DNA of 53,756 bases. Source: a virus. The DNA lies in the IMG/VR virus record IMGVR_UViG_3300018411_000004, one strand, 5' to 3'. Shown piece by piece: positions 4,645 to 52,500 of this stretch. The notes beneath the pieces are model-generated. The model did not search any database. It was not told where the DNA came from and saw only the letters and a program-made list of their open reading frames with translations. Position 1 is the stretch's first letter; every line of letters starts with the position of its first letter. The translations under genes were made by a program, and so were the position numbers.

Positions 4645-5373
4645 ATGAATGCACCATATGCAATTTTGGCTTTCGTAACGGGCGCTCTCTTAGGGGTATC
4701 CGTTACGGGAACTATATTAAAAATAAAGTATGCTAAAGATCTGGAAAGAGAGGTTGATTCTGTAATCGAATCATTCTCAGCTGCGCCAAGAGTTATATTC
4801 AAGGATAAGAAAGATGAAGTTGAGGAACACGTCGAATCTTCAACCGTATCTGGAGATGCTCCGAAATTATCACTTGTAAATGATGAGGGTACCGATATAG
4901 CTCAAGGATTTTACTACAGCCCAGAAAACGATGCGGATAAGTTCAAACCGCAGGTTAAAAAATACTACGACGTTCATGGAAATGAATTGGTAGTAAATGA
5001 TGACGGTGTTTATGAAGAAGAATATGAAGAGGAGCTTCCTGAACTAACTGAGGACGACGCGTTTGCTTACGAAGAACCATATTCCATAAGTCCTGATGAA
5101 GTTGAGCCGCTTATTGAAGAAGGATATTCGGTTCTTAACTGGACTGTATATCAAGGATGCGATGATAGTAAACTGGTTGCAGACGAAAATGATGAGTTGG
5201 TAGATCACGCCGAGATTGAACGGACTATCGGCGTTGGGGTTGAGTGTCTAGGCGAATATGAGCCGGACATAGCGCATATATGCAACGACCGCTTACGTTG
5301 CGTTATTGAATTAACGGAAGACTTGCGTAACTATTCCGATATAATGAAAGCGATGTCGTTCATAAATCAATAG
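4645..5373 (+). CDS. Hypothetical protein with an N-terminal TM segment and a very acidic body
   Basis: 242 aa, RBS aaggagg. Confidence 0.75.
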   Translation: MNAPYAILAFVTGALLGVSVTGTILKIKYAKDLEREVDSVIESFSAAPRVIFKDKKDEVEEHVESSTVSGDAPKLSLVNDEGTDIAQGFYYSPENDADKFKPQVKKYYDVHGNELVVNDDGVYEEEYEEELPELTEDDAFAYEEPYSISPDEVEPLIEEGYSVLNWTVYQGCDDSKLVADENDELVDHAEIERTIGVGVECLGEYEPDIAHICNDRLRCVIELTEDLRNYSDIMKAMSFINQ

Positions 5374-5927
5374 TGATTCGAGAAGAATATTACAAATGGT
5401 TATGTCACTTCGTTTTTACCTCACGTAGAAGAAATTACAAACGTCTGATTAAATATCTGCATAGCGTAGAGTTTACATATTTCATACCATTCGATGAAAA
5501 CCGGTACGAAGATGGTATTGAATTACGCAGACGATTTGCAATCGAATCCGGTTATATGCAAGATCATTTAATAAATATCATGGGTGACGATCCGTGTAGC
5601 GTATTAGAAATGATGATAGCATTGGCGATTCGATGTGAGGAAAATATAATGGAGGACATCGAAATTGGCGATAGAACGGGTCAATGGTTTTGGGCCATGA
5701 TCGATAATGCGGGGTTCGGTTCGCTGACTGATATTAATTTCAATTCGAGAGAAGCTGATTTTATAACAAATAGAATACTTAATCGTGAGTACGGTCCTTG
5801 TGGTGAAGGTGGGTTATTTTACATAAAACACAATTGTCATGCGGACTTACGTACGGTTGAACTTTGGTATCAACTTAATTGGTACTTAGCATCATATATT
5901 AAGGAGATGAACGAATATGAATACTAA
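5373..5927 (+). CDS. Hypothetical protein
   Basis: 184 aa, TAGTG start/stop overlap with the upstream gene. Confidence 0.7.
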   Translation: MIREEYYKWLCHFVFTSRRRNYKRLIKYLHSVEFTYFIPFDENRYEDGIELRRRFAIESGYMQDHLINIMGDDPCSVLEMMIALAIRCEENIMEDIEIGDRTGQWFWAMIDNAGFGSLTDINFNSREADFITNRILNREYGPCGEGGLFYIKHNCHADLRTVELWYQLNWYLASYIKEMNEYEY

Positions 5928-6099: not shown

Positions 6100-9000
6100 G
6101 TGCTAGACTTTTTAATGATTGCAACCAGAAGCACTAAGAAAGGTGCTATTGAAGTATATCCTAAATTCTTAATAAAGAAGAGTAAGGATCTTATGATTCG
6201 AGGTGGGGATTTCTATGCTGTGTGGGACGAGGCTCAAAATCGATGGTCTTTAGATGAACACGCAGCCTTACGAATGATCGACAAGGAATTGGTAACATAC
6301 ACCGAAGAACGATGCGATAAATTTGATGGTGAAGTTCGAGTGCTACATTTATGGGATTCATCTTCAGGCATGATCGATAACTGGCATAAATATTGTCAGA
6401 AACAAATGCGAGATTCGTTCCACCCACTTGATGAAAAACTGGTATTCGCAAATGAGGAGACAACCAAAGAGGATTATGTTACACGAACTTTAACATATCC
6501 TTTAGAGTCTGGGGATATCTCGGCATACGAACGTATGATGTCAGTGTTATATTCTCCGGATGAACGTATGAAAATTGAGTGGGCGATCGGATCGATCGTT
6601 ACTGGCGAATCCGTTAATATACAGAAGTTCTTAGTATTCTACGGATCTGCCGGTACAGGTAAATCGACAGTTCTTAATTTGATTCAGAAGTTATTTGATG
6701 GATATTACACGGTCTTCGATGCTAAAGCATTGGGATCTACGAGTAACTCATTTGCTCTGGAAGCATTTAAGACGAACCCATTAGTAGCGATTCAGCACGA
6801 CGGGGATCTTTCGAGAATTGCAGATAATACTCGACTTAACAGCGTGGTTTCACATGAGTTAATGACTGTAAATGAGAAGTTCAAAGCTACATACGCTAGT
6901 AAATTCAAATGTTTCTTATTTATGGGTACGAACAAACCGGTAAAGATCACAGACGCTAAGTCGGGACTTATCCGAAGACTTATTGACGTTTCTCCCACCG
7001 GGGATAAATTACCGTCAGTAGAATATAAAGCAGTAGTACATCAACTTGATTTCGAATTGGGTGCCATCGCATATCATTGCGCTGAAGTTTACAAAAACAA
7101 CAAATCGAAATATGATGATTACATCCCAACTACAATGCTGGGCGCTTCGAATGATTTCTATAACTATATTGAAGACGCTTTTTATGTGTTTAAGGATGAA
7201 GACGGTGTAACTCTTAAAACTGCTTGGGAACGATATAAAACATATTGTACGGAGGCACATGTTCAGTATCCATTTTCACAAAGAGCGTTTAAAGAAGAAC
7301 TGAAGAATTACTTTAAAGAATATAAAGAACGTCATGTTTTAGCGGATGGAACGAGGGTGAGAAGTTATTTTGAGGGCTTTCGTTATGATAAGTTTGAAAG
7401 AGTTCAAGAGGAGGATCACGACGAATGTCCTGAGAATTTAAAGACTATTATATTTAATGGTAAAGAATCTGAATTTGACAAACAGTGCAAATCTTGTCCA
7501 GCACAGTACGCATCCGAGCAAGGATCGCCTGTCATGAAGTGGGCAAATGTGAAAACTAAGCTATCTAAAATAGACACATCCAAGTTGCATTATGTAAAAG
7601 TTCCAGAGAATCATATTGTGATCGATTTCGATTTGACGGAGAATGGCGAGAAGTCGCTGGAACTGAATTTAAAAGAGGCTAGTAAATGGCCAGAGACATA
7701 CGCTGAGGTAAGTAAAAGTGGTAAAGGTATCCATCTGCATTATATTTATTCAGGTGATGCTTCCAAACTGTCTCGAGTATATGACGAACATATAGAAATA
7801 AAAGTGTTTGTCGGTAACGCTTCGCTACGAAGGAAACTAACGAAGTTTAACGATAAACCTATAAACACTATAAGCTCTGGCCTACCCTTGAAAGGAGACA
7901 AGGTGATTAATTTCGATTCGGTAAAAAATGAAAAGGCGATACGTACGTTAATTCATAAAAATATTTATAAGGAATACCACCCTGGCACCAAACCAAGTAT
8001 CGAGTTTATACACAAGATACTCGAGGATGCTTATGAAAGTGGAGTACCTTATGATGTTCGAGATATGGAAAATGTTGTGTTTGCATTTGCAGCGAGTAGC
8101 ACCAACCATGCTGAATATTGTATGGATTTGGTTGAGACTATGAAGTTTAAATCGGAGGATATTTCCGAAAATGGCGTTAACGAGGATGTTTCGGCGCTGG
8201 TGTTTTATGATGTTGAGGTCTTTCCAAATTTATTCATTGTAAACTATAAGGCGGAAGGAGAAAATAAACCTGTTGTACGAATGATCAACCCAACGTCAAA
8301 AGATATTGAAGGATTACTTCGATACAAACTTGTAGGATTCAACTGTAGGCGTTACGATAATCATATTCTTTACGGACGTCTTATCGGGTATACGAACGAA
8401 CAACTGTATGAGTTATCAATGCGGATTATCAATAATAAACCAAATGCATATTTCGGTGAGGCTTGGAATATATCTTATACGGATGTATACGACTTCTCAT
8501 CTGAAAAGAAATCTTTGAAGAAGTTTGAAATCGAACTGGGTATTCACCATCAGGAACTTGGACTGCCTTGGGATCAACCTGTGCCTGAAGAACTTTGGGT
8601 TAAGGTCGCTGAGTATTGTGATAACGATATTATTGCGACCGAAGCAGTGTTCCATGCAAGACAATCGGACTGGTTAGCACGACAGATACTGGCAGATATT
8701 GCTGGAAAATCTGTTAACACGACTACGAACTCCCTATCGACTCGAATTATATTTGGAGATAACAAGACTCCTCAGGATGAGTTTAATTATCGTGATATGG
8801 GTAAAGTGGATGATAAATGCTCAACGATATCCATGACTGATAAAGGCGTGTTGTTTGACAACTTTGCGGACGATGAGCATTGTTTATTTGACGAGTTTAA
8901 TCGACCGGTGTTCCCTGGCTATAAATATGAAGCTGGTAAATCGCATTATCGTGGAGAAGTTGTTGGAGAAGGCGGTTACGTATATTCTGAACCGGGCATG

Positions 9001-10125
9001 TATGGAAACGTTGCATTACTTGATATTGCATCAATGCATCCGACAAGCGCAATTCAGGAAAACTTATTCGGTGATGTATATACTAAGAAGTTTAAAGAAA
9101 TTGTAGATGCTCGACTCGCGATAAAACATAAGGATCTTGATTCTGCTAGACAAATGCTGGGTGGGGCTTTAGCTAAATATCTTGACGATGAAAGTCTACT
9201 CAAGGATTTATCGACAGCGTTGAAGATCGTTATCAACTCTGTATACGGTTTAACGTCAGCAAGTTTCGAAAACCCATTCAGAGATCCAAGAAATATCGAT
9301 AATATCGTAGCCAAACGTGGAGCGTTATTTATGGTAAACCTGAAACATGCAGTTCAAGCACGAGGTTTTACCGTTGCTCATATTAAGACCGACTCGATTA
9401 AGATACCAGATGCAACTCCTGAGATTATTCAGTTTGTTACGGATTATGGTGAGATGTACGGTTACACCTTTGAACACGAGGCTACATACGATCGCTTATG
9501 TCTGGTTAATGATGCTGTTTATATCGCTCGATATTCTGGAGAAGGTGTAAAGTGGACTGCTACGGGTACTCAATTCGCGGTGCCGTATGTATTCAAGAAG
9601 TTATTTACTGGCGATGATATCGAATTTAAAGATCTCTGTGAAACAAAATCCGTAGCATCCTCCATATATTTGGATATGAACGAGTCGCTTCCCGATGTTA
9701 AAGAGTATGAAAAAGAGCGGGATAAGATATGGAAGAAACTTCTTTCCGATGAACCGATGGATAAATCTGTTGTCGACGATCTAGAACAACGATATTTGGA
9801 ACTTGAAGAACTGATCGCTCCGGGACACAATTATATATTTGTAGGAAAGATAGGTCTGTTCTGCCCAATCAAATCTGGACATGGCGGTGGTATACTTTTA
9901 AGAGAGAATAACACTGCTAAAAACGGTAAGGTTGGATATGCATCTGTAACTGGCACTAAAGGATATCGTTGGTTAGAAGCTGAAATGGTGGAGAACTTGG
10001 GTAAATATGATTCTATAGATAGATCATATTATGACAACTTGGTAAATGATGCGGTCGACAGCATTGCTACATATGGTGATATTGAATGGTTTGTATCAGA
10101 AGAAACATATTTAAAGAAAGATTAA
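6100..10125 (+). CDS. Replicase fusion: SF3 (D5/P4-like) helicase, AEP primase-like domain and family-B DNA polymerase
   Basis: 1341 aa. Helicase: Walker A GSAGTGKST (aa 182-190), Walker B VAIQHDGD, FMGTNKP. AEP: IVIDFDL and SKSGKGIHLHY (aa 506-548). PolB: ExoI FYDVEVF, ExoIII YCDNDIIAT, motif A LLDIASMHPTS, motif B KIVINSVYG, motif C HIKTDS. Confidence 0.85.
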   Translation: MLDFLMIATRSTKKGAIEVYPKFLIKKSKDLMIRGGDFYAVWDEAQNRWSLDEHAALRMIDKELVTYTEERCDKFDGEVRVLHLWDSSSGMIDNWHKYCQKQMRDSFHPLDEKLVFANEETTKEDYVTRTLTYPLESGDISAYERMMSVLYSPDERMKIEWAIGSIVTGESVNIQKFLVFYGSAGTGKSTVLNLIQKLFDGYYTVFDAKALGSTSNSFALEAFKTNPLVAIQHDGDLSRIADNTRLNSVVSHELMTVNEKFKATYASKFKCFLFMGTNKPVKITDAKSGLIRRLIDVSPTGDKLPSVEYKAVVHQLDFELGAIAYHCAEVYKNNKSKYDDYIPTTMLGASNDFYNYIEDAFYVFKDEDGVTLKTAWERYKTYCTEAHVQYPFSQRAFKEELKNYFKEYKERHVLADGTRVRSYFEGFRYDKFERVQEEDHDECPENLKTIIFNGKESEFDKQCKSCPAQYASEQGSPVMKWANVKTKLSKIDTSKLHYVKVPENHIVIDFDLTENGEKSLELNLKEASKWPETYAEVSKSGKGIHLHYIYSGDASKLSRVYDEHIEIKVFVGNASLRRKLTKFNDKPINTISSGLPLKGDKVINFDSVKNEKAIRTLIHKNIYKEYHPGTKPSIEFIHKILEDAYESGVPYDVRDMENVVFAFAASSTNHAEYCMDLVETMKFKSEDISENGVNEDVSALVFYDVEVFPNLFIVNYKAEGENKPVVRMINPTSKDIEGLLRYKLVGFNCRRYDNHILYGRLIGYTNEQLYELSMRIINNKPNAYFGEAWNISYTDVYDFSSEKKSLKKFEIELGIHHQELGLPWDQPVPEELWVKVAEYCDNDIIATEAVFHARQSDWLARQILADIAGKSVNTTTNSLSTRIIFGDNKTPQDEFNYRDMGKVDDKCSTISMTDKGVLFDNFADDEHCLFDEFNRPVFPGYKYEAGKSHYRGEVVGEGGYVYSEPGMYGNVALLDIASMHPTSAIQENLFGDVYTKKFKEIVDARLAIKHKDLDSARQMLGGALAKYLDDESLLKDLSTALKIVINSVYGLTSASFENPFRDPRNIDNIVAKRGALFMVNLKHAVQARGFTVAHIKTDSIKIPDATPEIIQFVTDYGEMYGYTFEHEATYDRLCLVNDAVYIARYSGEGVKWTATGTQFAVPYVFKKLFTGDDIEFKDLCETKSVASSIYLDMNESLPDVKEYEKERDKIWKKLLSDEPMDKSVVDDLEQRYLELEELIAPGHNYIFVGKIGLFCPIKSGHGGGILLRENNTAKNGKVGYASVTGTKGYRWLEAEMVENLGKYDSIDRSYYDNLVNDAVDSIATYGDIEWFVSEETYLKKD

Positions 10126-11966: not shown

Positions 11967-12449
11967 ATGAACAGTGATTTATTAAAAAGAATTCATATTA
12001 TCGGTTACGAATTAAATATGTACGGAACCCTTGAAGAACCCTTATTCTTAGCTGTTGAGGTAGCTAAACTAATCGATTATAGTGTTGGTAATACTGGCCA
12101 AATGTTAAATACGGTAGATCCTGATGAAAAGCAGACCCTTACAATGCAAAGGTCAGGTCAGAACCGTGATATGTGGTTCTTAACAGAATCCGGACTATAT
12201 GAAGTGTTGATGCAATCCCGTAAACCTGTAGCCAGACGATTCAAACGAGCTGTTAAATCGGTTCTTAAGGGTCTGAGATTATCTGGTAAGGCTGATCTTG
12301 AGGATTGGATGAATCATCCAGACCCATATTTAGACGAATGGGAGAAAGAAAGTGAACGAAGAGATCGTAACGGTGAAGAAGAGATCACGTTTGATGATTT
12401 CTTGAGAAATAAGGGGTATACTGAGGATATGTTATGCCTGGAAAATTAG
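11967..12449 (+). CDS. Bro-N domain protein (antirepressor-like)
   Basis: 160 aa. Bro-N-like pattern PLFLAVEVAKLIDY...WFLTESGLYEVLMQSRKPVARRFKRAV. Preceded by the early-type RBS box gtacgtggaggtacgaa. Confidence 0.65.
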   Translation: MNSDLLKRIHIIGYELNMYGTLEEPLFLAVEVAKLIDYSVGNTGQMLNTVDPDEKQTLTMQRSGQNRDMWFLTESGLYEVLMQSRKPVARRFKRAVKSVLKGLRLSGKADLEDWMNHPDPYLDEWEKESERRDRNGEEEITFDDFLRNKGYTEDMLCLEN

Positions 12450-16402: not shown

Positions 16403-16576
16403 ATGGTATTAGTTTTTACAGACGGTAACGCTCCTCAGCAAGTGGTTGAGATCCTTCAATCATTTGTTGGTGGAGCTTTATTCACAAATATATCTACGGC
16501 AATTAACCGTTTGGAAGAACTTGGTTTGGATGGTGGCGATATTCTACATTGTCGATTCGTTGAGGTTATTAATTAA
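16403..16576 (+). CDS. Small hypothetical protein (57 aa)
   Basis: Below the ORF-track cutoff. The ATG directly abuts the upstream TAG, and the ORF fills an otherwise empty 190-nt gap. Confidence 0.45.
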   Translation: MVLVFTDGNAPQQVVEILQSFVGGALFTNISTAINRLEELGLDGGDILHCRFVEVIN

Positions 16577-16591
16577 AGAGAGGTAATTATT

Positions 16592-16939
16592 ATGGAGATG
16601 CGTAAAAACAAAAGGGGACATACGAAAGTTAAATTTACTCGGGCTGAGCAGGACGCTATGAATCGTGAGATCGAGGATCAGCTTTTAGATTTTGTCGGTC
16701 GAAATCTTCTAGAGATTGAAGCAATGATGATGGTTCAGTTGCGAGAACAATTGGGATTTGGTAAGAAGAGATTAAAACAATTTTATACTGGCTTCAGTCC
16801 GACCATTTATGATTTCATGGTGCGAAGTCTCAAATATCGTGAAGGCGGTGCTGAAAAAAGTTGTGTTGAGAAACTTGACGATTATGGTTGTCCTTTAGAG
16901 GAGTGGGCTATTGAACGAGAGGAATTGCTTAATGAATAA
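16592..16939 (+). CDS. Hypothetical protein
   Basis: 115 aa, RBS agagagg. Confidence 0.65.
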   Translation: MEMRKNKRGHTKVKFTRAEQDAMNREIEDQLLDFVGRNLLEIEAMMMVQLREQLGFGKKRLKQFYTGFSPTIYDFMVRSLKYREGGAEKSCVEKLDDYGCPLEEWAIEREELLNE

Positions 16940-17183
16940 CGAGTTTAAAAAAGACAGAATTTTATTTAAAGAGAAAGATCCTAGAAAAAACGCTTCTGGT
17001 TGTAGTGATCTGACTGCATACAACGCTATTCAGAATATCGATGAGGAAGAAGAAGAGTTTAAAAAGTTGCTTCGGACTCTACGTTATATTTGTAATGTTG
17101 CAGTTTCGAGTTTGACGGACGGGTTTGTATTCGTAACAAAGAGAGTGGGAGGGTTTACAAATGATGCTAAAATATTTTGTTGA
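16932..17183 (+). CDS. Hypothetical protein
   Basis: ATGAATAA overlap with the upstream stop. Confidence 0.55.
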   Translation: MNNEFKKDRILFKEKDPRKNASGCSDLTAYNAIQNIDEEEEEFKKLLRTLRYICNVAVSSLTDGFVFVTKRVGGFTNDAKIFC

Positions 17184-17283
17184 CGTTGTATTGGTATGTG
17201 CTGGTATCGCAGTGATCGTATTTACTGGTTTGACTATTGTAACTGTGGTTCGTAACTTTATTAAGAGTTGGAGAAACCAATGA
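17161..17283 (+). CDS. Micro-protein, 40 aa, single TM
   Basis: MMLKYFVDVVLVCAGIAVIVFTGLTIVTVVRNFIKSWRNQ. gggaggg RBS, and ATGA overlap with the next ORF. Confidence 0.45.
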   Translation: MMLKYFVDVVLVCAGIAVIVFTGLTIVTVVRNFIKSWRNQ

Positions 17284-17417
17284 GTTTGTTGAGTGATATT
17301 TTCTCGTCCGTATTCTTTGTTTGTGGAACTATCATCATAGTAATCATTACCGGGTTATTTATTGGGATGGTTACTCAGACCCTTTTAGAATTCTATAGAA
17401 AGAGTAAAAAGAAATGA
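17280..17417 (+). CDS. Micro-protein, 45 aa, single TM
   Basis: MSLLSDIFSSVFFVCGTIIIVIITGLFIGMVTQTLLEFYRKSKKK. Translationally coupled at both ends. Confidence 0.45.
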   Translation: MSLLSDIFSSVFFVCGTIIIVIITGLFIGMVTQTLLEFYRKSKKK

Positions 17418-17530
17418 TGGAAGCAGCTTGGACGGTGTTGTTTGGTGGTATAGGTATTTCTATGATTGGATTTGGCATTGTAGATTTGCTTGAGGATTAT
17501 TCTGATGAAAAGAAAAGGAGGAATTCATAA
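17414..17530 (+). CDS. Micro-protein, 38 aa, single TM
   Basis: MMEAAWTVLFGGIGISMIGFGIVDLLEDYSDEKKRRNS. Start overlaps the upstream stop. Confidence 0.4.
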   Translation: MMEAAWTVLFGGIGISMIGFGIVDLLEDYSDEKKRRNS

Positions 17531-17619
17531 TGGGTAAAGTATTGTTACATACATTTTTGGTATTTGCTACTGGTGGTATCTGGGGCGTTGTTTTGATCGT
17601 TCGATATTTGTTGAAGTGA
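17530..17619 (+). CDS. Micro-protein, 29 aa, single TM
   Basis: MGKVLLHTFLVFATGGIWGVVLIVRYLLK. aaggagg RBS, and TAATG overlap. Confidence 0.4.
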   Translation: MGKVLLHTFLVFATGGIWGVVLIVRYLLK

Positions 17620-17627
17620 GGTAACTG

Positions 17628-17765
17628 ATGTATAGTGTGGAAACTTGTGGTTGTTGTATACATGAAAAGAAGTGCGCCTACGAATCTCCTTGTGATGATT
17701 GTAATGTCTTGAGAAGTCGTTGTAATGAGAGTCATTTCGAGGAGGCTGAAAAGGATGATGACTAG
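17628..17765 (+). CDS. Cys-rich micro-protein, 45 aa
   Basis: MYSVETCGCCIHEKKCAYESPCDDCNVLRSRCNESHFEEAEKDDD. Eight Cys residues. Confidence 0.4.
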   Translation: MYSVETCGCCIHEKKCAYESPCDDCNVLRSRCNESHFEEAEKDDD

Positions 17766-17798
17766 AACAAAAGTATTGATTGGGATTGGTTGGTTGTT

Positions 17799-18098
17799 GT
17801 GAATAGATTCGAGTTAATGGGTTATTCTCATGAGGCGAGTATTATTCTTCAAGATTGCTATGAATCGACAAAGGCTCTTTGGGAATGTTTCGCAGATGCG
17901 TTTGAAAGCTTTTCATATACAATGATGAAACCAATAGAGGATGCTTTTTATGAACTGTTTGACAACTACTATATTGGGAAGGATGTGAAACATTTTGATG
18001 GTGTATACAACAGGCCGAAGATGAGAGAGTATTTTAAGATGCAGCCAAACGTCTGTAATCTTAACAATAAAATTAGGAAAGCGAGGAATTTACTATGA
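17799..18098 (+). CDS. Hypothetical protein
   Basis: GTG start overlapping the TGA of a 15-codon upstream micro-ORF. An ATG at 17817 is an alternative start. Confidence 0.55.
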   Translation: MNRFELMGYSHEASIILQDCYESTKALWECFADAFESFSYTMMKPIEDAFYELFDNYYIGKDVKHFDGVYNRPKMREYFKMQPNVCNLNNKIRKARNLL

Positions 18099-18199
18099 CG
18101 ACTAGAACAAAGATATTGGTGGGGATTGGTTGGTTGGTTTATGCTACTGGATTTTGTTTCGGACTCGGGATGTTATTTGGATTGTATGGAGCACTATGA
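18095..18199 (+). CDS. Micro-protein, 34 aa, single TM. A truncated copy lies at 17755-17802
   Basis: MTTRTKILVGIGWLVYATGFCFGLGMLFGLYGAL. ATGA overlaps on both sides. Confidence 0.4.
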   Translation: MTTRTKILVGIGWLVYATGFCFGLGMLFGLYGAL

Positions 18200-18441
18200 G
18201 AGAGTGGCTGGAAGTTGATTTATCACCTGATAAGTCATTTACCATTCGTGTACATTTCGGACCATACGATGTTGATGTGATGACTAAATTTGCGTTCGTA
18301 AAGTCTTTAATATCGATGGAAGTATCTAATACGGAAGGTTTACAAATGTCGGTGGATAAGGTCGAATTATTGATAAAAGGGCGTGATTTGGAGCATGATT
18401 TGGAGTTTTGTGATATAATTGTTACAGGGACAATTTTGTGA
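18196..18441 (+). CDS. Hypothetical protein
   Basis: 81 aa. Start at the ATGA junction with the micro-ORF. Confidence 0.55.
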   Translation: MREWLEVDLSPDKSFTIRVHFGPYDVDVMTKFAFVKSLISMEVSNTEGLQMSVDKVELLIKGRDLEHDLEFCDIIVTGTIL

Positions 18442-18466
18442 AAAAGTAGTAAAAATGGTCAATTTT

Positions 18467-18724
18467 CTGCCCACTTTTAAAAATGCAAAAGTGGGCAGAG
18501 ACAAAAATTGATGAAATTTGGAGTAAAAATTGATGAAAAAATCGAAAAAATTCGCGAAATGGCCAAAAAAAGTGGGCATTTGCCCACTTTTAAAATCAAA
18601 AGTGGCCACGAACTTTGGCTTATTAGAGCCGTTTGAAGGGCCTTGGTCAAAAACCCACTTTTCTTTTACACTAATGTGAGAGAAAAGTTAATAATATATA
18701 TAAAGAATGGCAAACAAAAGTGGG
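18467..18724. repeat. Iteron-like array: seven copies of AAAAGTGGG(CA) / its complement, including two near-perfect palindromes
   Basis: Palindrome 1 is ctgcccactttt (18467-78) with aaaagtgggcag (18487-98). Palindrome 2 is aaaagtgggca-tt-tgcccactttt (18568-91). Further copies at 18598-608 (variant), 18654-62 and 18716-24. Also a 14-bp direct repeat aaaaattgatgaaa at 18503 and 18525. Confidence 0.8.
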
Positions 18725-18840
18725 TTTTTGGCCACGAGTGATTTTTGGCAATTTTTTGTACGAATCGGTCGTCAAATTTTGCAAAGTATTTTCTTTTTGA
18801 ATTTTTGTCAGATTAATGGTGATTTTGTGGACTTTTACAT

Positions 18841-18869
18841 ACGCGAAAAATACAAAGCGTTATATGAAA
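18841..18869 (+). promoter_or_regulatory. Early promoter-like box (variant TTATATGAAA)
   Basis: acgcgaa at 18841 and ttatatgaaa at 18860. Confidence 0.5.
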
Positions 18870-18892
18870 TAAAAGTACGTGGAGGTACGAAT

Positions 18893-19189
18893 ATGAAAAA
18901 TTTAAAAGAAATCAAAAAGCAGTTTGTGAAGAAATATTTTTATGAGATGTCTTTTGACAGAATAATTGGCGCTGAATTAATATCGCTGGTAATAACTAAA
19001 GTGTACATACGTTCCAAATATTGGGAAGGCGTAAGCTATAGATATATTGGCGACGATGTTAAAGTATCGGTAAGAAACTCTGTTGTAGACATTGATGTAA
19101 TGATTCAAGAGCTTACAAAAACTTTTGATAAGTTAAAGTTTGAAAAAGTGAACAATCAAATTTTTATATCAAAGAAGATGGAGTCGTAA
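18893..19189 (+). CDS. Hypothetical protein
   Basis: 98 aa. Start after gtacgtggaggtacgaat. The longer ORF-track version runs through the iteron region and has no RBS. Confidence 0.65.
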   Translation: MKNLKEIKKQFVKKYFYEMSFDRIIGAELISLVITKVYIRSKYWEGVSYRYIGDDVKVSVRNSVVDIDVMIQELTKTFDKLKFEKVNNQIFISKKMES

Positions 19190-19206
19190 AAGACTCTTTT
19201 CTTTTT
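19181..19206 (+). terminator. Intrinsic terminator (cassette type)
   Basis: gagtcg-taaa-agactc hairpin followed by ttttcttttt. Confidence 0.6.
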
Positions 19207-19221
19207 AGTCTAAAATCAGCC

Positions 19222-19250
19222 ACGCGAAAAAAACACGCCCTTTTATAGAG
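19222..19250 (+). promoter_or_regulatory. Degenerate promoter-like box (ACGCGAA ... TTATAGAG)
   Basis: acgcgaaaaaaacacgcccttttatagag. The upstream half is conserved and the downstream half diverges. Confidence 0.3.
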
Positions 19251-19330
19251 GGAGGATAGAATGTGAACTTTTTTAGAAGTTACTAGTATCACTCTCTAAA
19301 CTTTTTAAACTTTATGTGGAGGATTTATCT

Positions 19331-19636
19331 ATGCGAGGTAATAAAGTGTTGGAGAAAAACTTTCAATCAAAACTCATCAAAGAGTTAAAACAAATGTTTG
19401 AAGGTTGTATTGTAACAAAATTAGATTCAGGTCATATTCAAGGAATACCCGATCTCTTGATTTTGTACAAAAATAAATGGGCGACTTTGGAATGTAAGAA
19501 ATCGAAAGGTGCTAAAAGACAACCGAACCAAAAATATTACGTTGACATCATGGATAAGATGTCCTTCTCTAGATTCATCGATCCAAACAATAAAGAGGAG
19601 GTGCTCCATGATCTTCAACAAGCATTTCAATCTTGA
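19331..19636 (+). CDS. VRR-NUC domain nuclease
   Basis: PD-(D/E)xK signature GIPDLLI...ATLECK. RBS ggagga 7 nt upstream of the ATG. Confidence 0.7.
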   Translation: MRGNKVLEKNFQSKLIKELKQMFEGCIVTKLDSGHIQGIPDLLILYKNKWATLECKKSKGAKRQPNQKYYVDIMDKMSFSRFIDPNNKEEVLHDLQQAFQS

Positions 19637-20171
19637 GGGTAGTCACGCTTTTCTTGGAGCGAGTAAATATCACTGGATAAATTATGACGAAAATAAAGTT
19701 GCAGATTCATATTTAAGATTCTTGGCAAGTCGAAAAGGAACTGAGCTTCATGACTTTGCGGCTCGATGTATTTCTTTGAAACAGAAGTTACCAAAATCCA
19801 AGAAGACTTTAAATGCTTATGTAAATGACGCTATAGGTTTTCATATGATTCCAGAACAAACCTTATATTTCTCAGACAATTGTTTCGGAACAGCTGACGC
19901 TATAACCTTTGCTAATAATACTTTGAGAATTCATGATCTGAAAACCGGAGTTATTCCAGGACATATGGAACAGCTTGAAGTTTATACCGCGTTATTCTGT
20001 TTGGAGTATGTGATCGATCCAAAAGATATTAATATCGAATTACGTATTTACCAGAATGATGATATTCTGATTCATAATCCTGATGAGGATGATATTCGTT
20101 ATGTGATTGATAAAATGGTTACGTTTGATAAAATCATTACCAAAATAAAGATTGAGGAGGGTATGGCTTAA
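19608..20171 (+). CDS. PD-(D/E)XK-family nuclease-like protein
   Basis: 187 aa, RBS gaggagg. TADAITF...IHDLKTG motif. Confidence 0.5.
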   Translation: MIFNKHFNLEGSHAFLGASKYHWINYDENKVADSYLRFLASRKGTELHDFAARCISLKQKLPKSKKTLNAYVNDAIGFHMIPEQTLYFSDNCFGTADAITFANNTLRIHDLKTGVIPGHMEQLEVYTALFCLEYVIDPKDINIELRIYQNDDILIHNPDEDDIRYVIDKMVTFDKIITKIKIEEGMA

Positions 20172-22957
20172 TGTATTATTTCGATGATGAGTTAGAACAT
20201 GTTGGAACTAAGAAACATTCAGGCCGATATCCTTGGGGGTCTGGTAAGAATCCATATCAACATAGTGGAGACTTTCTTAGTCGAGTTGAAGAACTTTCTA
20301 AGAATGGTATTTCTCAAAAAGATTTAGCTGATATTTTAGGTATGTCGACAACCGATTTAAGAATGCAGTTGAGAGTTGCCAATCATGAGCGACGCGAATT
20401 ACAAAGAGATCGAGCTAAATCTTTGAGAGCTGACGGTAAGAGTTTACAAGAGATATCTCAGATTATGGGTTTTAAAAATGACTCATCTGTAAGATCTTTA
20501 TTGAACGATAATACCGCAGCTAATAAGAATAAAGCTAAAGTAACTGCTGAGATTCTCAAGAAAGAACTCGAGAAGAAGGGTGACATGCTTGAAGTTGGTG
20601 CAGGTGTTGAAAGAGTTCTTGGTGTATCTAAATTAACTCTTAAAGAAGCGTTATTTACCCTCGAGACGGAAGGTTATAATGTTTATAAAGTTGGAATACC
20701 AGATATGTCTAAACCTGGTAGGCAGTCCAACACAGCTATATTAGCTAAGAGTCATGTTCCGTATGCCGATGCTTATGCGAAGATGGAAACCGTTCAGTCT
20801 GTTGGTGACTATCATTCCAAAGATGGTGGTGACACCTTTAGTCAAAAGAAATATCCAGCTAGTGTTGATTCTAAAAGAATTCATGTTAGATATGGAGATC
20901 AAGGTGGCGCTGCTAAAGATGGAACTATTGAGTTAAGGCGAGGTGTTAAAGATTTAGATCTTGGAACATCTAGTTATGCTCAGGTTCGTATATTAGTTGA
21001 CGGCACTCATTACCTTAAGGGTATGGCTTTATATTCCGATGATATGCCGGATGGCGTTGATATCGTATTTAACACAAATAAGAAGTCTGGAACGCCTAAG
21101 CTAGATACTTTGAAAGAAGTTAAATCTGATAAGTCGAACCCTTTTGGAGCGTATATTAAGGCTCAAGGTCAGAGTACCTATATTGACAAAGATGGTAAAG
21201 AAAAACTTTCAGCTATCAACAAGTTGAAAGAAGAAGGTGACTGGGATAAGATGTCTGAAAACTTATCTTCTCAGTTCTTATCTAAACAACCAATGCAGCT
21301 AATCAATAAACAGTTGAATCTAACATATGCCGATGCTCGAGCATATTTAGATGAGTTGAACTCTTTAACCAATCCGACTATTAAGAAAAAACTCTTATTA
21401 GATTTTGCTGGTAACTGTGAAAGTAAAGCTGTTCATCTTAAAGCGGCTGCACTACCAAGACAGAAAACTCAGGTTATATTACCCTTGACCGGTATATCTG
21501 ATAAGGAAATCTACGCGCCAAACTTTAAAGATGGTGAAAAGGTATCTCTTGTTCGATATCCTCATGGTGGTATATTTGAGATCCCGCAATTAACAGTTAA
21601 CAATAAGAATGCTCAAGGCAGAAGAGTTCTTGGAACCAACGTTAAAGACGCTGTTGGTATACACCCAAACGTTGCTGAAAGATTATCTGGAGCCGACTTC
21701 GATGGCGATCAAGTAATTGTTATTCCAGAATCATCAAAGGTTCATGTTAAATCTAAAGCTCGATTATCTGGGCTTATAGACTTTGATGGAAAGACAGCAT
21801 TCCCACCCAAGACTGAAGACACTTTATATGTGAAGAAAGGTCCTGATGATAAGACTCCACTGTACAACGGTAAGAAAATTTTATCTAAAGTCATGACTAA
21901 AGAGAACACTCAAAGAGAAATGGGTATCGTATCAAATCTTATTACTGATATGACTTTAAGGGGCGCTTCTGATGAGAAGTTAACGAGAGCTATCAAGCAT
22001 AGTATGGTCGTTATTGATGCTGAGAAACATAAATTGGATTATAAAGAATCCGAAAAGGTTAATCGTATCAAAGAACTTAAGAAAGAATATCAGTTACAGT
22101 ATGACGAAAATGGTAAGGAAAAATATGGTGCGTCTACGTTACTCTCTCGTAGAAAGCAAACCGTTGACGTTGATGAGCGTAAAGGTAGCGGCGTTATTGA
22201 TCCAGATACAGGTGTTGTGACATATAAGACTTCTGGTAGAGAATATAAAGAAATTGTTAAAGATAAAGCTACAGGTAAAAGCGTCGAGACTGGAAATATG
22301 ATCAAAGCTAAGTCTAAAGTTAAATTGGTATTAGCAGTTGATGATGTTAAGTCTTTATCTTCTGGAACTTTAGAAGAAGATGCATATGCTGACTATGCAA
22401 ATAAGATGAAAGCTTTAGCGAATGAAGCTAGGAAATTATATAAGTCTACAGGTAACTTAACATATTCTAAAGAAGCCCGTATAAAATATGACAATGAAGT
22501 TCAAGCGTTAAATGCTAGACTTAATATCGCTGCAATGAATGCTCCCAAAGAAAGACAGGCTAGGATAATTGCTAATGGAGTCCTTAAAGCTAAGAAGCAG
22601 GAATATCCTGAGCTGGTCAAAGATAAGAAAGAATCTAAGAAGATATATCAGCAGGCTATGGAGGATGCACGAGCAGCTGTCGGATTGAATAGCAAGGCAG
22701 ATAAGATAGTCTTCTCAGATAAAGAATGGGAAGCCATACAAGCTGGCGCTATCACTGATAATAAGTTAGCTCAGTTACTACGTTATGCTGATGAGGATAA
22801 GTTTAAGGAGAGAGCACTACCCAGAGCTACCACTGAACTATCCCCCGCTTCTATTAGTCGTATCAAAGCTATGCAACAAAGTGGTTACACTAATGAACAG
22901 ATAGCTTCACGATTAGGTAAGTCTGTATCGACAGTGTTTAAGTATCTTAATCAATGA
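20171..22957 (+). CDS. Single-polypeptide two-barrel RNA polymerase (YonO/RdRP-like, beta-prime-type catalytic loop) with HTH modules and an N-terminal leader motif
   Basis: 928 aa. VSLVRYPHGGIFEIP...AVGIHPNVAERLSGADFDGDQVIVIPE aligns with bacterial beta-prime NRAPTLH...[25 protein letters not shown]. DFDGD lies at nt 21695-21709. HTH-like segments near aa 45-110 and at the C-terminus (GYTNEQIASRLGKSVSTVFKYL). Confidence 0.65.
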   Translation: MYYFDDELEHVGTKKHSGRYPWGSGKNPYQHSGDFLSRVEELSKNGISQKDLADILGMSTTDLRMQLRVANHERRELQRDRAKSLRADGKSLQEISQIMGFKNDSSVRSLLNDNTAANKNKAKVTAEILKKELEKKGDMLEVGAGVERVLGVSKLTLKEALFTLETEGYNVYKVGIPDMSKPGRQSNTAILAKSHVPYADAYAKMETVQSVGDYHSKDGGDTFSQKKYPASVDSKRIHVRYGDQGGAAKDGTIELRRGVKDLDLGTSSYAQVRILVDGTHYLKGMALYSDDMPDGVDIVFNTNKKSGTPKLDTLKEVKSDKSNPFGAYIKAQGQSTYIDKDGKEKLSAINKLKEEGDWDKMSENLSSQFLSKQPMQLINKQLNLTYADARAYLDELNSLTNPTIKKKLLLDFAGNCESKAVHLKAAALPRQKTQVILPLTGISDKEIYAPNFKDGEKVSLVRYPHGGIFEIPQLTVNNKNAQGRRVLGTNVKDAVGIHPNVAERLSGADFDGDQVIVIPESSKVHVKSKARLSGLIDFDGKTAFPPKTEDTLYVKKGPDDKTPLYNGKKILSKVMTKENTQREMGIVSNLITDMTLRGASDEKLTRAIKHSMVVIDAEKHKLDYKESEKVNRIKELKKEYQLQYDENGKEKYGASTLLSRRKQTVDVDERKGSGVIDPDTGVVTYKTSGREYKEIVKDKATGKSVETGNMIKAKSKVKLVLAVDDVKSLSSGTLEEDAYADYANKMKALANEARKLYKSTGNLTYSKEARIKYDNEVQALNARLNIAAMNAPKERQARIIANGVLKAKKQEYPELVKDKKESKKIYQQAMEDARAAVGLNSKADKIVFSDKEWEAIQAGAITDNKLAQLLRYADEDKFKERALPRATTELSPASISRIKAMQQSGYTNEQIASRLGKSVSTVFKYLNQ

Positions 22958-22970
22958 AAGGAGTAAGACT

Positions 22971-23222
22971 ATGAAACGATGTGCATTAACAACTACTGAT
23001 AATCCTTATGATCCATTTGAACAATTCGATTCTTGGTATATGTTTGATCTAACTAAAGGTTATAACTCTTGCTCCTATCTTGCAAGGATTGCTCGAACTG
23101 CTGATCAACTATCTGATGAAGAGAATGCTTTGGAGATTGAGAGAGCGATCGATGAAATCATTGAGTTAGACTTTATGGATCGCTATAGAAAAGTTTGTAT
23201 TGATGAAACGAAAGCTTCATAA
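22971..23222 (+). CDS. Hypothetical protein
   Basis: 83 aa, RBS aaaggag. Confidence 0.65.
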   Translation: MKRCALTTTDNPYDPFEQFDSWYMFDLTKGYNSCSYLARIARTADQLSDEENALEIERAIDEIIELDFMDRYRKVCIDETKAS

Positions 23223-23459
23223 CTGTTTGTTCGAATCAATCAACTAAGTTTTAAAAACTTTTTTTATAAATCATAGGGGTGTTTATTATTTAAAAGTTCT
23301 AAAAGTCATGTTTATTAAGTCGTTCAATCTTTTTAGTGTCATGTTAATATTGCATGAACGACTAGACATAAGGGGGGTCTCTGCAAAAACAGCACCCCCT
23401 ATGCATCGCTCTCGTCCTCAAAAATTCCCCGGGGGTGATTTTTAGTCAATGTAAACCAA

Positions 23460-23627
23460 TTACTTACTGTCTGAAAAGTTCCGTGAGAGCCATTACGTAT
23501 CTCCACGACACGTCGCTTCATTAATCGCCTCCTATTGATTAATAAATTTTACCATCCATCCGTCACAGCCTCGCAACCTGTTAAGACTGAACTAAAAGTC
23601 TCACGGAACTTTTCAGACAGTAAGTAA
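23460..23627. repeat. Perfect 29-bp inverted repeat enclosing 110 nt, inside a 439-bp non-coding region
   Basis: ttacttactgtctgaaaagttccgtgaga (23460-88) and tctcacggaacttttcagacagtaagtaa (23599-627). Confidence 0.9.
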
Positions 23628-23661
23628 AACCACACCAAATCTACTAGAAAGGAGGCTAGAA

Positions 23662-47924: not shown

Positions 47925-48038
47925 TTTAAAATGCAACACGACTTCGAGAGTCCTTACCTCTAGGTAAAAATTAAGCGATAAAACGGGGCTAGTAATGAGA
48001 GTGAAACTCCTGTAGCTGAAAGAAAGGTAACAACGTTA

Positions 48039-49130
48039 TTGAAACGATATCATATAGACACTATATTAGAACTTGACAAAATAGAGGAGGCTATCATAGT
48101 GGCCTCAAAGCACAAAAGACACAGAGCATCAGTTCAGAGAGTATTAGATAATAAAGAGATGTACGCTAGAAGAATAAGACATTTATTAATATTTGAACTC
48201 TTTGAACCGACTTTGAGACCTCCATTTAAAATAATAGATGGAGTATCCAGAAAAGAACGTATGATAGATTCTGCGCCATTCTATCCGGATCAAATAATAC
48301 ATACATTATTAGTTGCGGCGTTTAAACCGTATTTCATGAAAGGTATGTATGAATTTTGCAGTGCATGTGTACCAGGACGAGGAGTACATTATGGTAAAAA
48401 ATACGTAGAGCGATGGTTGAAAAATGATTTAAAGAATACCCGATATTTCTTAAAACTTGATATCAGGAAGTATTACCCAAGTTTAAAACCTAAGGTGGTA
48501 TGGTCTTTGTTGTGTAGAAAATTTAAGGATTCTAAGGCTATGAGAGTTTTGAAAAAGATAGTCTTCGCCTATCCAGGATTACCAATAGGTCTTTTAACCA
48601 GTCAATGGTTAGCCAATTTTTGTCTCCAAGGTCTCGATCACTATATAAAAGAGGTTCTTCATATACCGTATTACATTCGATATCTAGATGATATGGTGTT
48701 ATTTTCGGATGACAAAAAACTTCTACATAAAGCAAGACTTAAAATAAAATGCTACCTATCAAAACTAGGACTAGCCTTGAAGAGTAACTGGCAGGTAAAT
48801 AAGTTCGATTACGATTATGGTACAGCTCGTAGAAAAGGTCAAGATTTAGATTTCATGGGGTTTAGATTTTTTAGAGATAAAACAATAATAAGAAAAGCTA
48901 TAAGTTTACGTATCAGAAGACGCGTGAAAAAGGTTTCTAAAACAACCAACCCTCGTATGAAAGACGTTAAGGCGGTGTTATCTTATTTGGGATGGGTAAA
49001 ACATACGGATAGTTATATATTTTATAACGAAACGTTTGGGAAGTATTTAAGTATTAATAAATTAAGAAAGATGGTGAGTGTTCATGACAGGAAAAAGCAA
49101 TCTACGACCTCCGAAGTTCAGTATTGTTGA
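48039..49130 (+). CDS. DGR reverse transcriptase
   Basis: 363 aa with a TTG start. YIRYLDDMVLF (YxDD) and the DGR-typical LPIGLLTSQ (IGxxxSQ). Confidence 0.85.
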   Translation: MKRYHIDTILELDKIEEAIIVASKHKRHRASVQRVLDNKEMYARRIRHLLIFELFEPTLRPPFKIIDGVSRKERMIDSAPFYPDQIIHTLLVAAFKPYFMKGMYEFCSACVPGRGVHYGKKYVERWLKNDLKNTRYFLKLDIRKYYPSLKPKVVWSLLCRKFKDSKAMRVLKKIVFAYPGLPIGLLTSQWLANFCLQGLDHYIKEVLHIPYYIRYLDDMVLFSDDKKLLHKARLKIKCYLSKLGLALKSNWQVNKFDYDYGTARRKGQDLDFMGFRFFRDKTIIRKAISLRIRRRVKKVSKTTNPRMKDVKAVLSYLGWVKHTDSYIFYNETFGKYLSINKLRKMVSVHDRKKQSTTSEVQYC

Positions 49131-51197: not shown

Positions 51198-51395
51198 CCT
51201 AAATAAGGCTCAAAATTGGTCAAAAACAGGTCATTTCTTATATAACGCTCATATCCGTGATTTAACAGACTTTAAGGGTTTTAACATATTAAGTGACCTG
51301 TAATTTATTTAAACGCTTCTATGGGGCTCTGAGAGGCTATGTTTTTTTTCGGAAGTCCTGTAAAAATGACGTAAAACGAAAAGTGGAGGTACGTA

Positions 51396-51611: not shown

Positions 51612-51639
51612 CGCGAATAAAACATATCATTATATGAAG
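51611..51639 (+). promoter_or_regulatory. Early promoter-like box
   Basis: acgcgaa at 51611 and ttatatgaag at 51630. Confidence 0.55.
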
Positions 51640-51663
51640 TAATAAAATAGGAGGATTAAAACT

Positions 51664-52083
51664 ATGAATGACAGAATTGAAGAATTGTTGGACGAGGTTA
51701 TTGAATCTGAATTGGAGAAAATGAAAGACTCTTTGGAGAGTCCGGAAGAAAAGAAAGTAACGGTTGATTATTTGGTAAAACTGAATAACATACAAACCGA
51801 ACGTAAGGAAGTTAAACGTAAAGAAACTGAACTTGAATTAAAGCATTTAGAGTTAGAGGACAAAATAGAAGTCCAATCTGACGATAAAGCGTATAAGGAA
51901 GTTTTAGTGAAGCGTGAAATGTTACAGACGTTCGTAAAGGGTGGAATTGAAGTTTTCGGAGTAGTCGCACCAATTATGTTCTATTCGGCATGGATGAAGC
52001 GAGGTCTGAGATTTGAAGAGACAGGTACATATACGTCACAGACGTTCAAAGGTTTGTTTGGTAAATTTAAACCAACTAAGTAA
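51664..52083 (+). CDS. Early protein (coiled-coil plus a C-terminal hydrophobic segment)
   Basis: 139 aa, RBS taggagg. Confidence 0.7.
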   Translation: MNDRIEELLDEVIESELEKMKDSLESPEEKKVTVDYLVKLNNIQTERKEVKRKETELELKHLELEDKIEVQSDDKAYKEVLVKREMLQTFVKGGIEVFGVVAPIMFYSAWMKRGLRFEETGTYTSQTFKGLFGKFKPTK

Positions 52084-52096
52084 TACTGATAGGATT

Positions 52097-52124
52097 GAGA
52101 GTTAAAACACTCTCTTTTCTTTTT
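52097..52124 (+). terminator. Intrinsic terminator (cassette type)
   Basis: gagagt-taaaac-actctc hairpin followed by ttttcttttt. Confidence 0.65.
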
Positions 52125-52136
52125 GGAGATTTACAT

Positions 52137-52165
52137 ACGCGAAAAAAACATTGACTTATATGAAG
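52137..52165 (+). promoter_or_regulatory. Early promoter-like box
   Basis: acgcgaa at 52137 and ttatatgaag at 52156. Confidence 0.55.
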
Positions 52166-52195
52166 AATAAAAATATAATACGTGGAGGTATTAAA

Positions 52196-52435
52196 ATGGA
52201 AAGTATTTTGAGAACAAAGATTGAAGAATTGGAAGAGTTATTAACGGTTGAGATTATCAACACCGCTGGAGGAATATCCGACGACGAGATAGAAGCGCTG
52301 ATTAATTTAAAACAAACAATTCGACGATCTTTGAAAATAACTGCTGGACGTGAAGAACTTCGAGATGTTAAAAAGATATTCGAACTGAATAAGAGACTTA
52401 AAGAATTGGATAAGCCGTTAAACTTTAAAAAGTAA
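52196..52435 (+). CDS. Small early protein
   Basis: 79 aa. Start after acgtggaggtattaaa. Confidence 0.65.
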   Translation: MESILRTKIEELEELLTVEIINTAGGISDDEIEALINLKQTIRRSLKITAGREELRDVKKIFELNKRLKELDKPLNFKK

Positions 52436-52445
52436 TGGTTGATTT

Positions 52446-52471
52446 GAGGGCGTAAGCTCTCTTTTCTTTTT
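52446..52471 (+). terminator. Intrinsic terminator (cassette type)
   Basis: gagggc-gtaa-gctctc hairpin followed by ttttcttttt. Confidence 0.55.
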
Positions 52472-52500
52472 GCGCGAATTTAACATACCCTTATATGAAG
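52472..52500 (+). promoter_or_regulatory. Early promoter-like box (GCGCGAA variant)
   Basis: gcgcgaa at 52472 and ttatatgaag at 52491. Confidence 0.5.

Follow-up and report, generated by a model that had tools for sequence, protein, structure and literature searches.

The stretch analyzed here, virus record IMGVR_UViG_3300018411_000004, is referred to at its full length of 53,756 nucleotides as the window; our subject is an array of short repeats at 18466-18736, within a block that lacks genes. The window is a complete phage genome of ~53.6 kb with 38.5% G+C. Its first 123 nt are repeated exactly at its end (1-123 = 53634-53756), which marks it as a circular assembly, and all of its gene-like large open reading frames (ORFs; ≥100 aa) are on the + strand. 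From the stop of a small ORF at 18441 to an ATG at 18893, 451 nt are without a credible gene. The gene 3′ of the block most likely starts at this ATG, behind a GGAGG at 18882-18886, rather than at ATG 18707; it encodes 98 aa (+ strand, 18882-19189 with its ribosome-binding site) and is kept only in the nearest relatives. An initial annotation had called 18442-18892 gene-free, which is reasonable with the ribosome-binding site pointing to 18893, and had treated it as one element. The block is non-coding, but it consists of two elements, the array (18466-18736) and a promoter box with the ribosome-binding site (18842-18886). A megablast search of the block region against phage records returned no match, and a search of the available literature found neither a description of the array nor an origin or regulatory map for these phages.

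The word repeated in the array

Exactly six copies of the word AAAAGTGGG are present in the window, three on each strand, at 18470(-), 18487(+), 18568(+), 18583(-), 18654(-) and 18716(+); no copy lies outside these 255 bp (18470-18724). A variant seventh copy, AAAAGTGGCCA, at 18598 completes the seven copies in both orientations within 260 bp that had first been noticed. Shuffling predicts 0.50 copies, none of 100 shuffles reached six, and the word enrichment proposed as a check was therefore evident. Outside the block there are only four one-mismatch matches, against ~15 expected in the whole window. An iteron origin is recognized by four or more short repeats unique in the replicon, and six exact copies and one variant are found here within 255 bp.

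The other repeats reported in the initial annotation were recovered as well: the near-perfect palindromes TCTGCCCACTTTT-N8-AAAAGTGGGCAGA (18466-18499) and AAAAGTGGGCA-TT-TGCCCACTTTT (18568-18591), a 14-nt direct repeat (18503 and 18525), the palindrome TTCGCGAA (18551), the word TTGGTCAAAAAC at 18643 and 51216, and an inverted repeat, ACAGGTCA/TGACCTGT, at 51226 and 51294. Two TGGCCACG words are present in the block as described (18603 and 18729), with one further copy at 46549. The 9-11-mer first taken as the repeated unit is real as a word, but the functional unit is better described as a composite site of ~19 nt, TGGYCA-A5-CCCAC-TTTT, that is, TGG(C/T)CA, five A's, CCCAC and a T-run. TGGYCAAAAA has three copies in the array and one at 51216.

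Conservation and anatomy of the array

Relatives were fetched from IMG/VR with the RNA polymerase encoded downstream of the array as bait, giving 80 loci (numbered with an L) with a polymerase identity of 57-76% and a G+C content of 36-55%. A core of the same layout is present in 68 of the 80. In most of the loci without it, the sequence stops too soon on the upstream side of the polymerase gene. L062, with 6 kb upstream, has neither word nor core, and L059 has one exact copy of the 8-mer. In the 68 loci AAAGTGGG forms a cluster of 3-7 copies located 1-4 kb upstream of the nuclease-polymerase block and is rare elsewhere in the locus. The tract between CCAC and AAAAGTGG of the inner sites, site T-run included, measures 57.0 ± 1.2 nt and has 20% G+C, compared with 49% for these loci as a whole. 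Alignment of the 62 distinct sequences among them showed that the whole ~250-nt element is conserved, beyond the repeated word, and that the small genes flanking it are not. Two isolates have the array as well, Faecalibacterium phage FP_oengus and, with a polymerase identity of only 45%, the Arthrobacter phage Lewando; by blastn, 42 further records of Arthrobacter phages contain the Lewando array region completely or partially, and several of the GenBank records of Arthrobacter phages have a hypothetical protein annotated over or beside it. The doubt raised at the outset, that the repeats might not be conserved in related phages, is thus clearly dispelled. Each genome has this layout once, and little other non-coding DNA is as well conserved across the whole phage family, which takes in 250 sequenced isolates (from Arthrobacter, Gordonia, Streptomyces, Lactococcus, Faecalibacterium and other hosts) and abundant human-gut phages.

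Other clades have an array of similar layout but with a different word at the same syntenic position, after a helicase or ligase gene and before the HNH / VRR-Nuc / Cas4 / polymerase genes. The word is GCCACTTTT in Streptomyces phage TieDye, GTGAAATCT in Streptomyces phage HotFries, AATCTTGACGAATCTGA in Gordonia phage Secretariat and AAAATCCCGGA in Lactococcus phage P162, and ReqiPoco6 has TTAATACCCTATA palindromes. Unlike the array word, the promoter box keeps one recognizable consensus across these clades; because the word changes by clade while the box stays, array and promoter are probably read by different specificity determinants. In this respect the array appears to behave like iterons that co-evolve with their binder or initiator.

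The center of the array is a core of two opposed sites. The left arm (18643-18662, - strand) is a composite site, TTGGTCAAAAACCCACTTTT (TGGYCA, A5, CCCAC, T4), and the right arm (18716-18736, + strand) is its inverted copy, AAAAGTGGGTTTTTGGCCACG, with composite site AAAAGTGGGTTTTTGGCCA; start to start they are 62 nt apart (18654 to 18716), and 62-63 nt in relatives, or about six helical turns. The arms belong to a 23-nt inverted repeat missed by the initial annotation (18644-18666 / 18712-18734, 91% complementary). Between them lie 53 nt with 25% G+C (18663-18715), containing TGTGAGAGAAAAGTTAATAATATATATAAAGAATGG and TATATATAAAG and a TATATA that is invariant in the alignment. The core thus has the AT-rich region between opposite repeats that is typical of iteron origins, and 18663-18715 is a candidate DNA-unwinding element. 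The left arm is doubled in gut relatives (CTGCCCACTTTCCCACTTTT) and takes the form TTTGGCCAAAAACCCACTTTT in FP_oengus.

To the left of the core are two palindromes and two linkers. Palindrome 1 (18466-18499) has perfect 13-nt arms around an 8-nt spacer and is made of two inverted sites with their A/T ends facing, preceded by GGTCAATTTT; the homologous site TCTGCCCACTTTT is nearly invariant among the 62 sequences. The linker that follows (18500-18567) carries two copies of AAAAATTGATGAAA (18503 and 18525; 22-nt period) and TTCGCGAA (18551-18558), with A-tracts spaced about 10-11 or 20-22 nt apart. It is the least conserved part, since the A-tract form is limited to the closest low-GC relatives (L002); high-GC relatives have TGTACGGACG there. 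Palindrome 2 (18568-18591) and its flanks occupy 18560-18610, which read TGGCCA-A7-GTGGGCA TT TGCCCAC-TTTT, then AAAATC-AAAAGTGGCCACG, in which AAAAGTGGCCACG is the variant seventh site (18598-18608); the region aligns with a conserved block of the relatives, GTTTTTGCCCACTTTTA-TTTCAAAAGTGGGCA. A short, G+C-richer linker (18611-18642) with a GGCTTATTAGAGCC mini-hairpin and CCGTTTGAAGGGCC aligns with the relatives' conserved GAAACCGTTG...CAAGGnTTTGCGGG. Changes in its putative stem are not compensatory, so it is the sequence that is conserved and not a proven structure. Far from the array, at a late-to-early gene boundary, an isolated half-site, TTGGTCAAAAAC, is followed by AGGTCA instead of CCCAC (51216-51227, + strand); its relation to the array is unproven.

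As single-stranded DNA (ssDNA), 18455-18745 is predicted to fold at -57.5 kcal/mol (z = -7.9 relative to shuffles) into three hairpins, those of palindromes 1 and 2 included. Such strong predicted folding might indicate a transcribed element, either a structured non-coding RNA or a terminator cluster closing the replication-gene operon, and palindrome 2 does have the form of a weak bidirectional terminator. Searching IMG/VR with palindrome 2 gave one exact match of 24-25 nt, AAAAGTGGGCATTTGCCCACTTTT, at 3388-3411 of L081 (IMGVR_UViG_3300013103_000992), a 5.7-kb viral contig; there the identical 25-mer stands where a terminator would, with a perfect TTGACT-N17-TATAAT promoter immediately after it. 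L081 otherwise shares nothing with the window, and the match is probably a coincidence among terminators. Several features argue against transcription as the purpose of the array: only one hairpin has a T-run behind it, four T's long; Rfam 15 yielded no family at the gathering threshold and only chance-level matches to E = 1; the word is invariant rather than co-varying and also occurs as tandem direct copies, CCCACTTTCCCACTTTT, that are unable to pair; and it is swapped wholesale between clades with the layout unchanged. We consider a transcribed element improbable.

The promoter box, neighboring genes and genome ends

The last 50 nt of the block contain the promoter box, an element separate from the array that the initial annotation lacked: CGCGAAAAATACAAAGCGTTATATGAA, with TTTACATA in front, at 18842-18868 on the + strand (CGCGAA-N13-TATATG). 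A search of the window for the box gave 16 matches versus 2.7 expected; the strong matches all precede genes on the + strand, and there are about 13 same-strand copies (+; 39-65, 1128, 1393, 12452, 18842, 19223 and 51612-53672). Right after the box at 39-65, Infernal calls a tRNA (44 bits; 68-138, repeated at the contig end); ARAGORN finds none in the window. A weaker box, CGCGAAAAAAACACGCCCTTTTATAGA, precedes the VRR-Nuc gene (19223-19249, + strand), and after it ~32 kb are without strong boxes, with two 3-mismatch matches only. Equivalents of the 19223 box are at 27684 in FP_oengus, 26109 in Lewando (L086) and 24713 in Secretariat (L092). The consensus is CGCGAA-N13-TWTATG in Firmicutes phages, with 12 copies in FP_oengus, and (T)CGC(A/G)-N5-6-TACA-N5-YTATAATGAG in actinophages (Gordonia, Streptomyces and Arthrobacter phages); in the latter form the TACA-TATAAT distance is too short for a sigma-70 promoter and fits a promoter of the phage's own polymerase. 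Because the box is a different word, multi-copy and conserved across clades, the array is not itself the polymerase's promoter: the two-barrel-polymerase motif CGCGAA-N13-T(A/T)TATG is matched at 18842-18868 and not by the array.

In the window, FP_oengus, Lewando and Secretariat the array is just upstream of the last strong box or boxes before the VRR-Nuc gene, outside the early-gene cluster; beyond those boxes comes a long stretch without strong ones, which includes the polymerase gene and continues across the ends into the structural genes. The box is always downstream of the array. In four of six genomes the coding-strand GC skew falls sharply at the array, from +0.34 to +0.18 in the window, +0.18 to +0.05 in FP_oengus, +0.12 to 0.00 in Lewando and +0.06 to -0.03 in HotFries. 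The array marks a real boundary in the genome. A change of skew at this place had been proposed as a check for an origin; the change is there, but its polarity is opposite to that of a classical origin. Cumulative GC skew was rejected as an origin test, being confounded by the location of all genes on one strand. Over at least 9 kb the skew climbs steadily toward the array from the left, and it resets to the right of it with gene orientation unchanged (window 16500-21000, FP_oengus, Lewando and HotFries).

A different promoter is found in the gut phages. In 63 of the 80 gut loci a unique extended -10 promoter (CTCTTCC-N17-TGTGnTATACT) lies within about 45-60 nt of the array and is followed by a structured RNA of ~115 nt and a terminator (4110-4310 in L005; also, among others, L003, L017, L029 and L032). 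The closing helix of the RNA shows compensatory changes (GCGACACAAT/ATTGTGTCGC, GCCACACAAT/..GTGGC, GCTACACAAAC/..GTAGC), and there is a GNRA-like hairpin and a CU-rich strand able to pair with a downstream GGAGAGA. The RNA has no Rfam match at E up to 1 and is absent from the window.

These positions raise the possibility that a phage regulator occupies the sites and activates or represses the box downstream (18842, 19223), which would make the array an early-to-late switch without origin function. The location of the array directly upstream of the last box before the strong-box-free stretch, in the four genomes named above, speaks for such control, as does the unique extended -10 promoter following it in 63 gut loci; the skew step at the array coincides with the early/late boundary; and the polymerase gene is plausibly late, the homologue in Lactococcus phage 1706 (gp75) being a structural protein according to the ReqiPoco6 record (L090), a note that also supports packaging of the RNA polymerase in the virion. 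However, we found no conserved small DNA-binding regulator beside the array or shared by all of these phages. The only helix-turn-helix domains that Pfam/PHROG scans detected among the shared proteins are the polymerase's, and their recognition helices do not partition by word. Furthermore, 5-10 sites over 270 bp with a fixed AT-rich spacer exceed known late activators and operators, and the distance from array to promoter ranges from 34 to about 110 nt, with one or two genes between them in some relatives. Control of the late promoter alone is the main alternative to an origin, and we hold it to be the less likely of the two.

Upstream of the array is the gene of a fused SF3 (superfamily 3)-helicase / archaeo-eukaryotic primase (AEP) / PolB replicase of 1341 aa (6100-10125, + strand), the SF3 module of which matches DUF5906 and Pox_D5; genes for an ssDNA-binding or annealing protein, an SNF2-like helicase and nucleotide metabolism are also found on this side. 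Downstream lies a conserved VRR-Nuc / Cas4-type exonuclease / RNA polymerase block (19316-22957, + strand). The polymerase is a single chain of 928 aa of the YonO/RdRP-like two-barrel class (bioRxiv 10.1101/842583), with helix-turn-helix domains at both ends. Beyond it come a conserved 83-aa protein (22971-23222), a structured gap at 23.2-23.7 kb and then packaging and structural genes. Elsewhere in the window, an Rfam RT-18 RNA (42.1 bits, just over threshold) at 47955-48026, directly upstream of ORF 48039-49130, fits a diversity-generating retroelement.

Candidate binders were sought by a coarse comparison of six genomes. The non-structural proteins that these share are three membrane-protein families, p184, the replicase, the ssDNA-binding protein and the SNF2-like helicase, together with VRR-Nuc, Cas4, the polymerase and the 83-aa protein. 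p184 (5373-5927, phrog_4678; >3800 homologues) is encoded directly upstream of the replicase gene in all six. Its AlphaFold model is confident and all-helical (predicted local distance difference test, pLDDT, 90; predicted template modeling score 0.88). At E < 1 the PDB offered no matching fold for it, and sigma-factor domain 2 headed the insignificant matches; the model of the 83-aa protein (pLDDT 84), also confident, likewise has no PDB fold match at E < 1, and neither protein provides a lead. The initial annotation had named Bro-N (11967-12449) as a possible binder. It has no counterpart in the five related genomes and so cannot read a word that those phages share. The helix-turn-helix domains of the polymerase are unlikely binders too, given that the N-terminal helices hardly change from one word to another and that the C-terminal helix varies where the word is shared. 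Within the replicase, the C-terminal 162 aa looked promising as a specificity domain in three genomes, but tblastn across genera gave no clean split, and a cluster of columns at residues 471-484 proved to be linker. No plasmid homologues of the replicase were found. Of all the shared proteins, we infer that the replicase, through its SF3-helicase part, offers the most plausible initiator candidate, because SF3 helicases act as sequence-specific self-loading initiators in Staphylococcus aureus pathogenicity islands (SaPIs) (PMC9371898).

The SNF2-like helicase shows a weak excess of alignment columns specific to same-word phages (9 versus 2-5 in control pairings), a signal from six genomes. This, the position of the actinophage array, with the SNF2-like helicase gene on one side and HNH / VRR-Nuc / Cas4 on the other, and the presence of cruciform-capable palindromes, which are substrates for structure-specific nucleases, would suit a nucleoprotein site of some other kind, such as one for recombination or replication restart (SNF2 helicase / VRR-Nuc / Cas4), for genome tethering or for use as a host-factor decoy. 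Nothing specific points to any of these functions, however, and SNF2 helicase, VRR-Nuc and Cas4 proteins are not known as readers of specific sequences. We think such a role unlikely.

Repeated sites in both orientations are also held by pac and cosB regions, and the array could accordingly be a recognition site for packaging, with accessory pac or cos sites for terminase. The genome ends are located elsewhere. The contigs of several relatives end 200-450 nt after the polymerase gene, just past the 83-aa gene, and a 3′ cos overhang is annotated after the polymerase/83-aa gene in ReqiPoco6, a Rhodococcus phage. In the window the corresponding place is a structured, G+C-rich gap (23223-23661), ~4.7 kb to the right of the array, and the physical ends are probably at about 23.2-23.7 kb. 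For Arthrobacter phages of the AU cluster, a published account gives 9-base 3′ cos ends (PMC5513430). As the ends of relatives fall just after the 83-aa gene, the array, which is not at the genome ends or terminase genes, is hardly credible as a packaging site.

A candidate replication origin

With moderate confidence, we interpret the array (18466-18736) as the assembly site of a phage nucleoprotein complex, most likely a replication origin of the iteron-plus-unwinding-element type that is coupled to the late promoter. The initial annotation had left a choice between origin and operator array; this is upheld in part, the origin being the better supported of the two as far as the sequence allows. 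The interpretation draws on the uniqueness of the locus in the genome, the sites in both orientations, the inverted sites that clamp an AT-rich spacer of fixed length, the words that change by clade and the phage's own SF3 replicase. Conservation of the array as a whole among relatives with diverged polymerases, its strong predicted ssDNA fold and the skew break in four of six genomes also speak for an origin. Furthermore, a phage that encodes its own SF3 helicase-primase-polymerase, ssDNA-binding protein and helicase needs an origin, and we saw no other iteron-like locus.

We propose that a phage initiator binds the 19-nt sites TGGYCA-A5-CCCAC-TTTT, for which the replicase (6100-10125) is the best candidate, possibly helped by the SNF2-like helicase. 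The two inverted sites, about six helical turns apart, would clamp the easily melted spacer, and the outer palindromes (18466-18499 and 18568-18610) would offer extra sites that raise local occupancy, with cruciform extrusion as a further possibility. Melting of the core would allow helicase rings to load in opposite orientations, and the primase and polymerase parts of the replicase would then start synthesis. The last promoter box (18842, 19223), directly downstream, heads the nuclease-polymerase genes and probably, across the joined ends, the structural genes. Since the array is just upstream of the promoter of this late unit, origin firing and late transcription are probably coupled.

Several observations weigh against an origin. 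One is distance: origins are expected beside the initiator gene, whereas in the window 8.3 kb separate the replicase gene from the array downstream of it; in actinophages it is 4.5-7.9 kb after the replicase, following the SNF2-like helicase gene. Another concerns the binder. Among the six genomes no protein is restricted to the phages that share the CCCACTT word, windowed-identity and column tests of eight shared proteins revealed no domain that tracks the word, and scans of the replicase detected neither a winged helix nor any other domain of an origin-binding type. In addition, the skew step, falling as it does on the early/late boundary, may reflect transcription, and an element controlling transcription would be just as well suited to the array's constant place shortly before a promoter.

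The proposed arrangement resembles several known origins. The phage P4 origin has octamer iterons in both orientations, read by the D5/SF3-type alpha primase-helicase, and a second cis site, crr, at a distance. Here both proteins and words differ; crr has no more than a faint counterpart in the isolated half-site at 51216, and the P4 origin is next to its initiator gene, unlike the array. In oriS of herpes simplex virus 1, two inverted boxes for the initiator-helicase UL9 clamp a short, fixed, hairpin-capable AT-rich spacer; again proteins and words differ, and the spacer is 18 nt in oriS versus 57 nt here. In lactococcal phage c2, an early promoter and a short non-coding "ori transcript" form part of the origin. 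Like c2, these phages have an AT-rich non-coding region beside a promoter, and 63 gut relatives have promoter, ~115-nt RNA and terminator after the array; the window differs in not having that RNA.

SaPI origins share the layout of the array: an AT-rich region lies between iterons that point in opposite directions, and a self-loading SF3 helicase reads them (PMC9371898). The likeness extends to the number of repeats (six to twelve short ones), the central position of the AT-rich region, the difference in words between related elements, and a phage-type SF3 helicase as initiator, a candidate here, which is fused to a primase in PriRep5 (PMC9371898). The SaPI iterons are, however, 5-6 nt long and immediately downstream of rep, as compared with ~19-nt composite sites 8.3 kb from the replicase. 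They are read by a C-terminal winged helix of Rep; none was found in the replicase, in which the helicase is followed by AEP and PolB.

A bolder possibility, which we regard as a long shot, is that the array forms a combined replication-transcription switch, in which the phage's own two-barrel RNA polymerase could use its promoter beside the array only once the origin complex has formed on the clamped core. Such a switch would be of a kind not yet described. If it exists, late genes, that of the virion-packaged polymerase included, would be transcribed only from replicating or end-joined genomes, and the TGGYCA-A5-CCCAC code would have survived unchanged as the lineage passed between Firmicutes and Actinobacteria. 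For the family more generally, one conserved cis element with a defined 19-nt site is a handle for finding the initiator of an unusual fused helicase-primase-polymerase, for constructing reporters or replicons where a host's genetic tools are few, and for examining how the phages time the expression of their unstudied RNA polymerase. Finally, the retention of one word across a phylum-level host jump, next to sister clades in which the word has been swapped, amounts to a natural experiment on the evolution of protein-DNA recognition.

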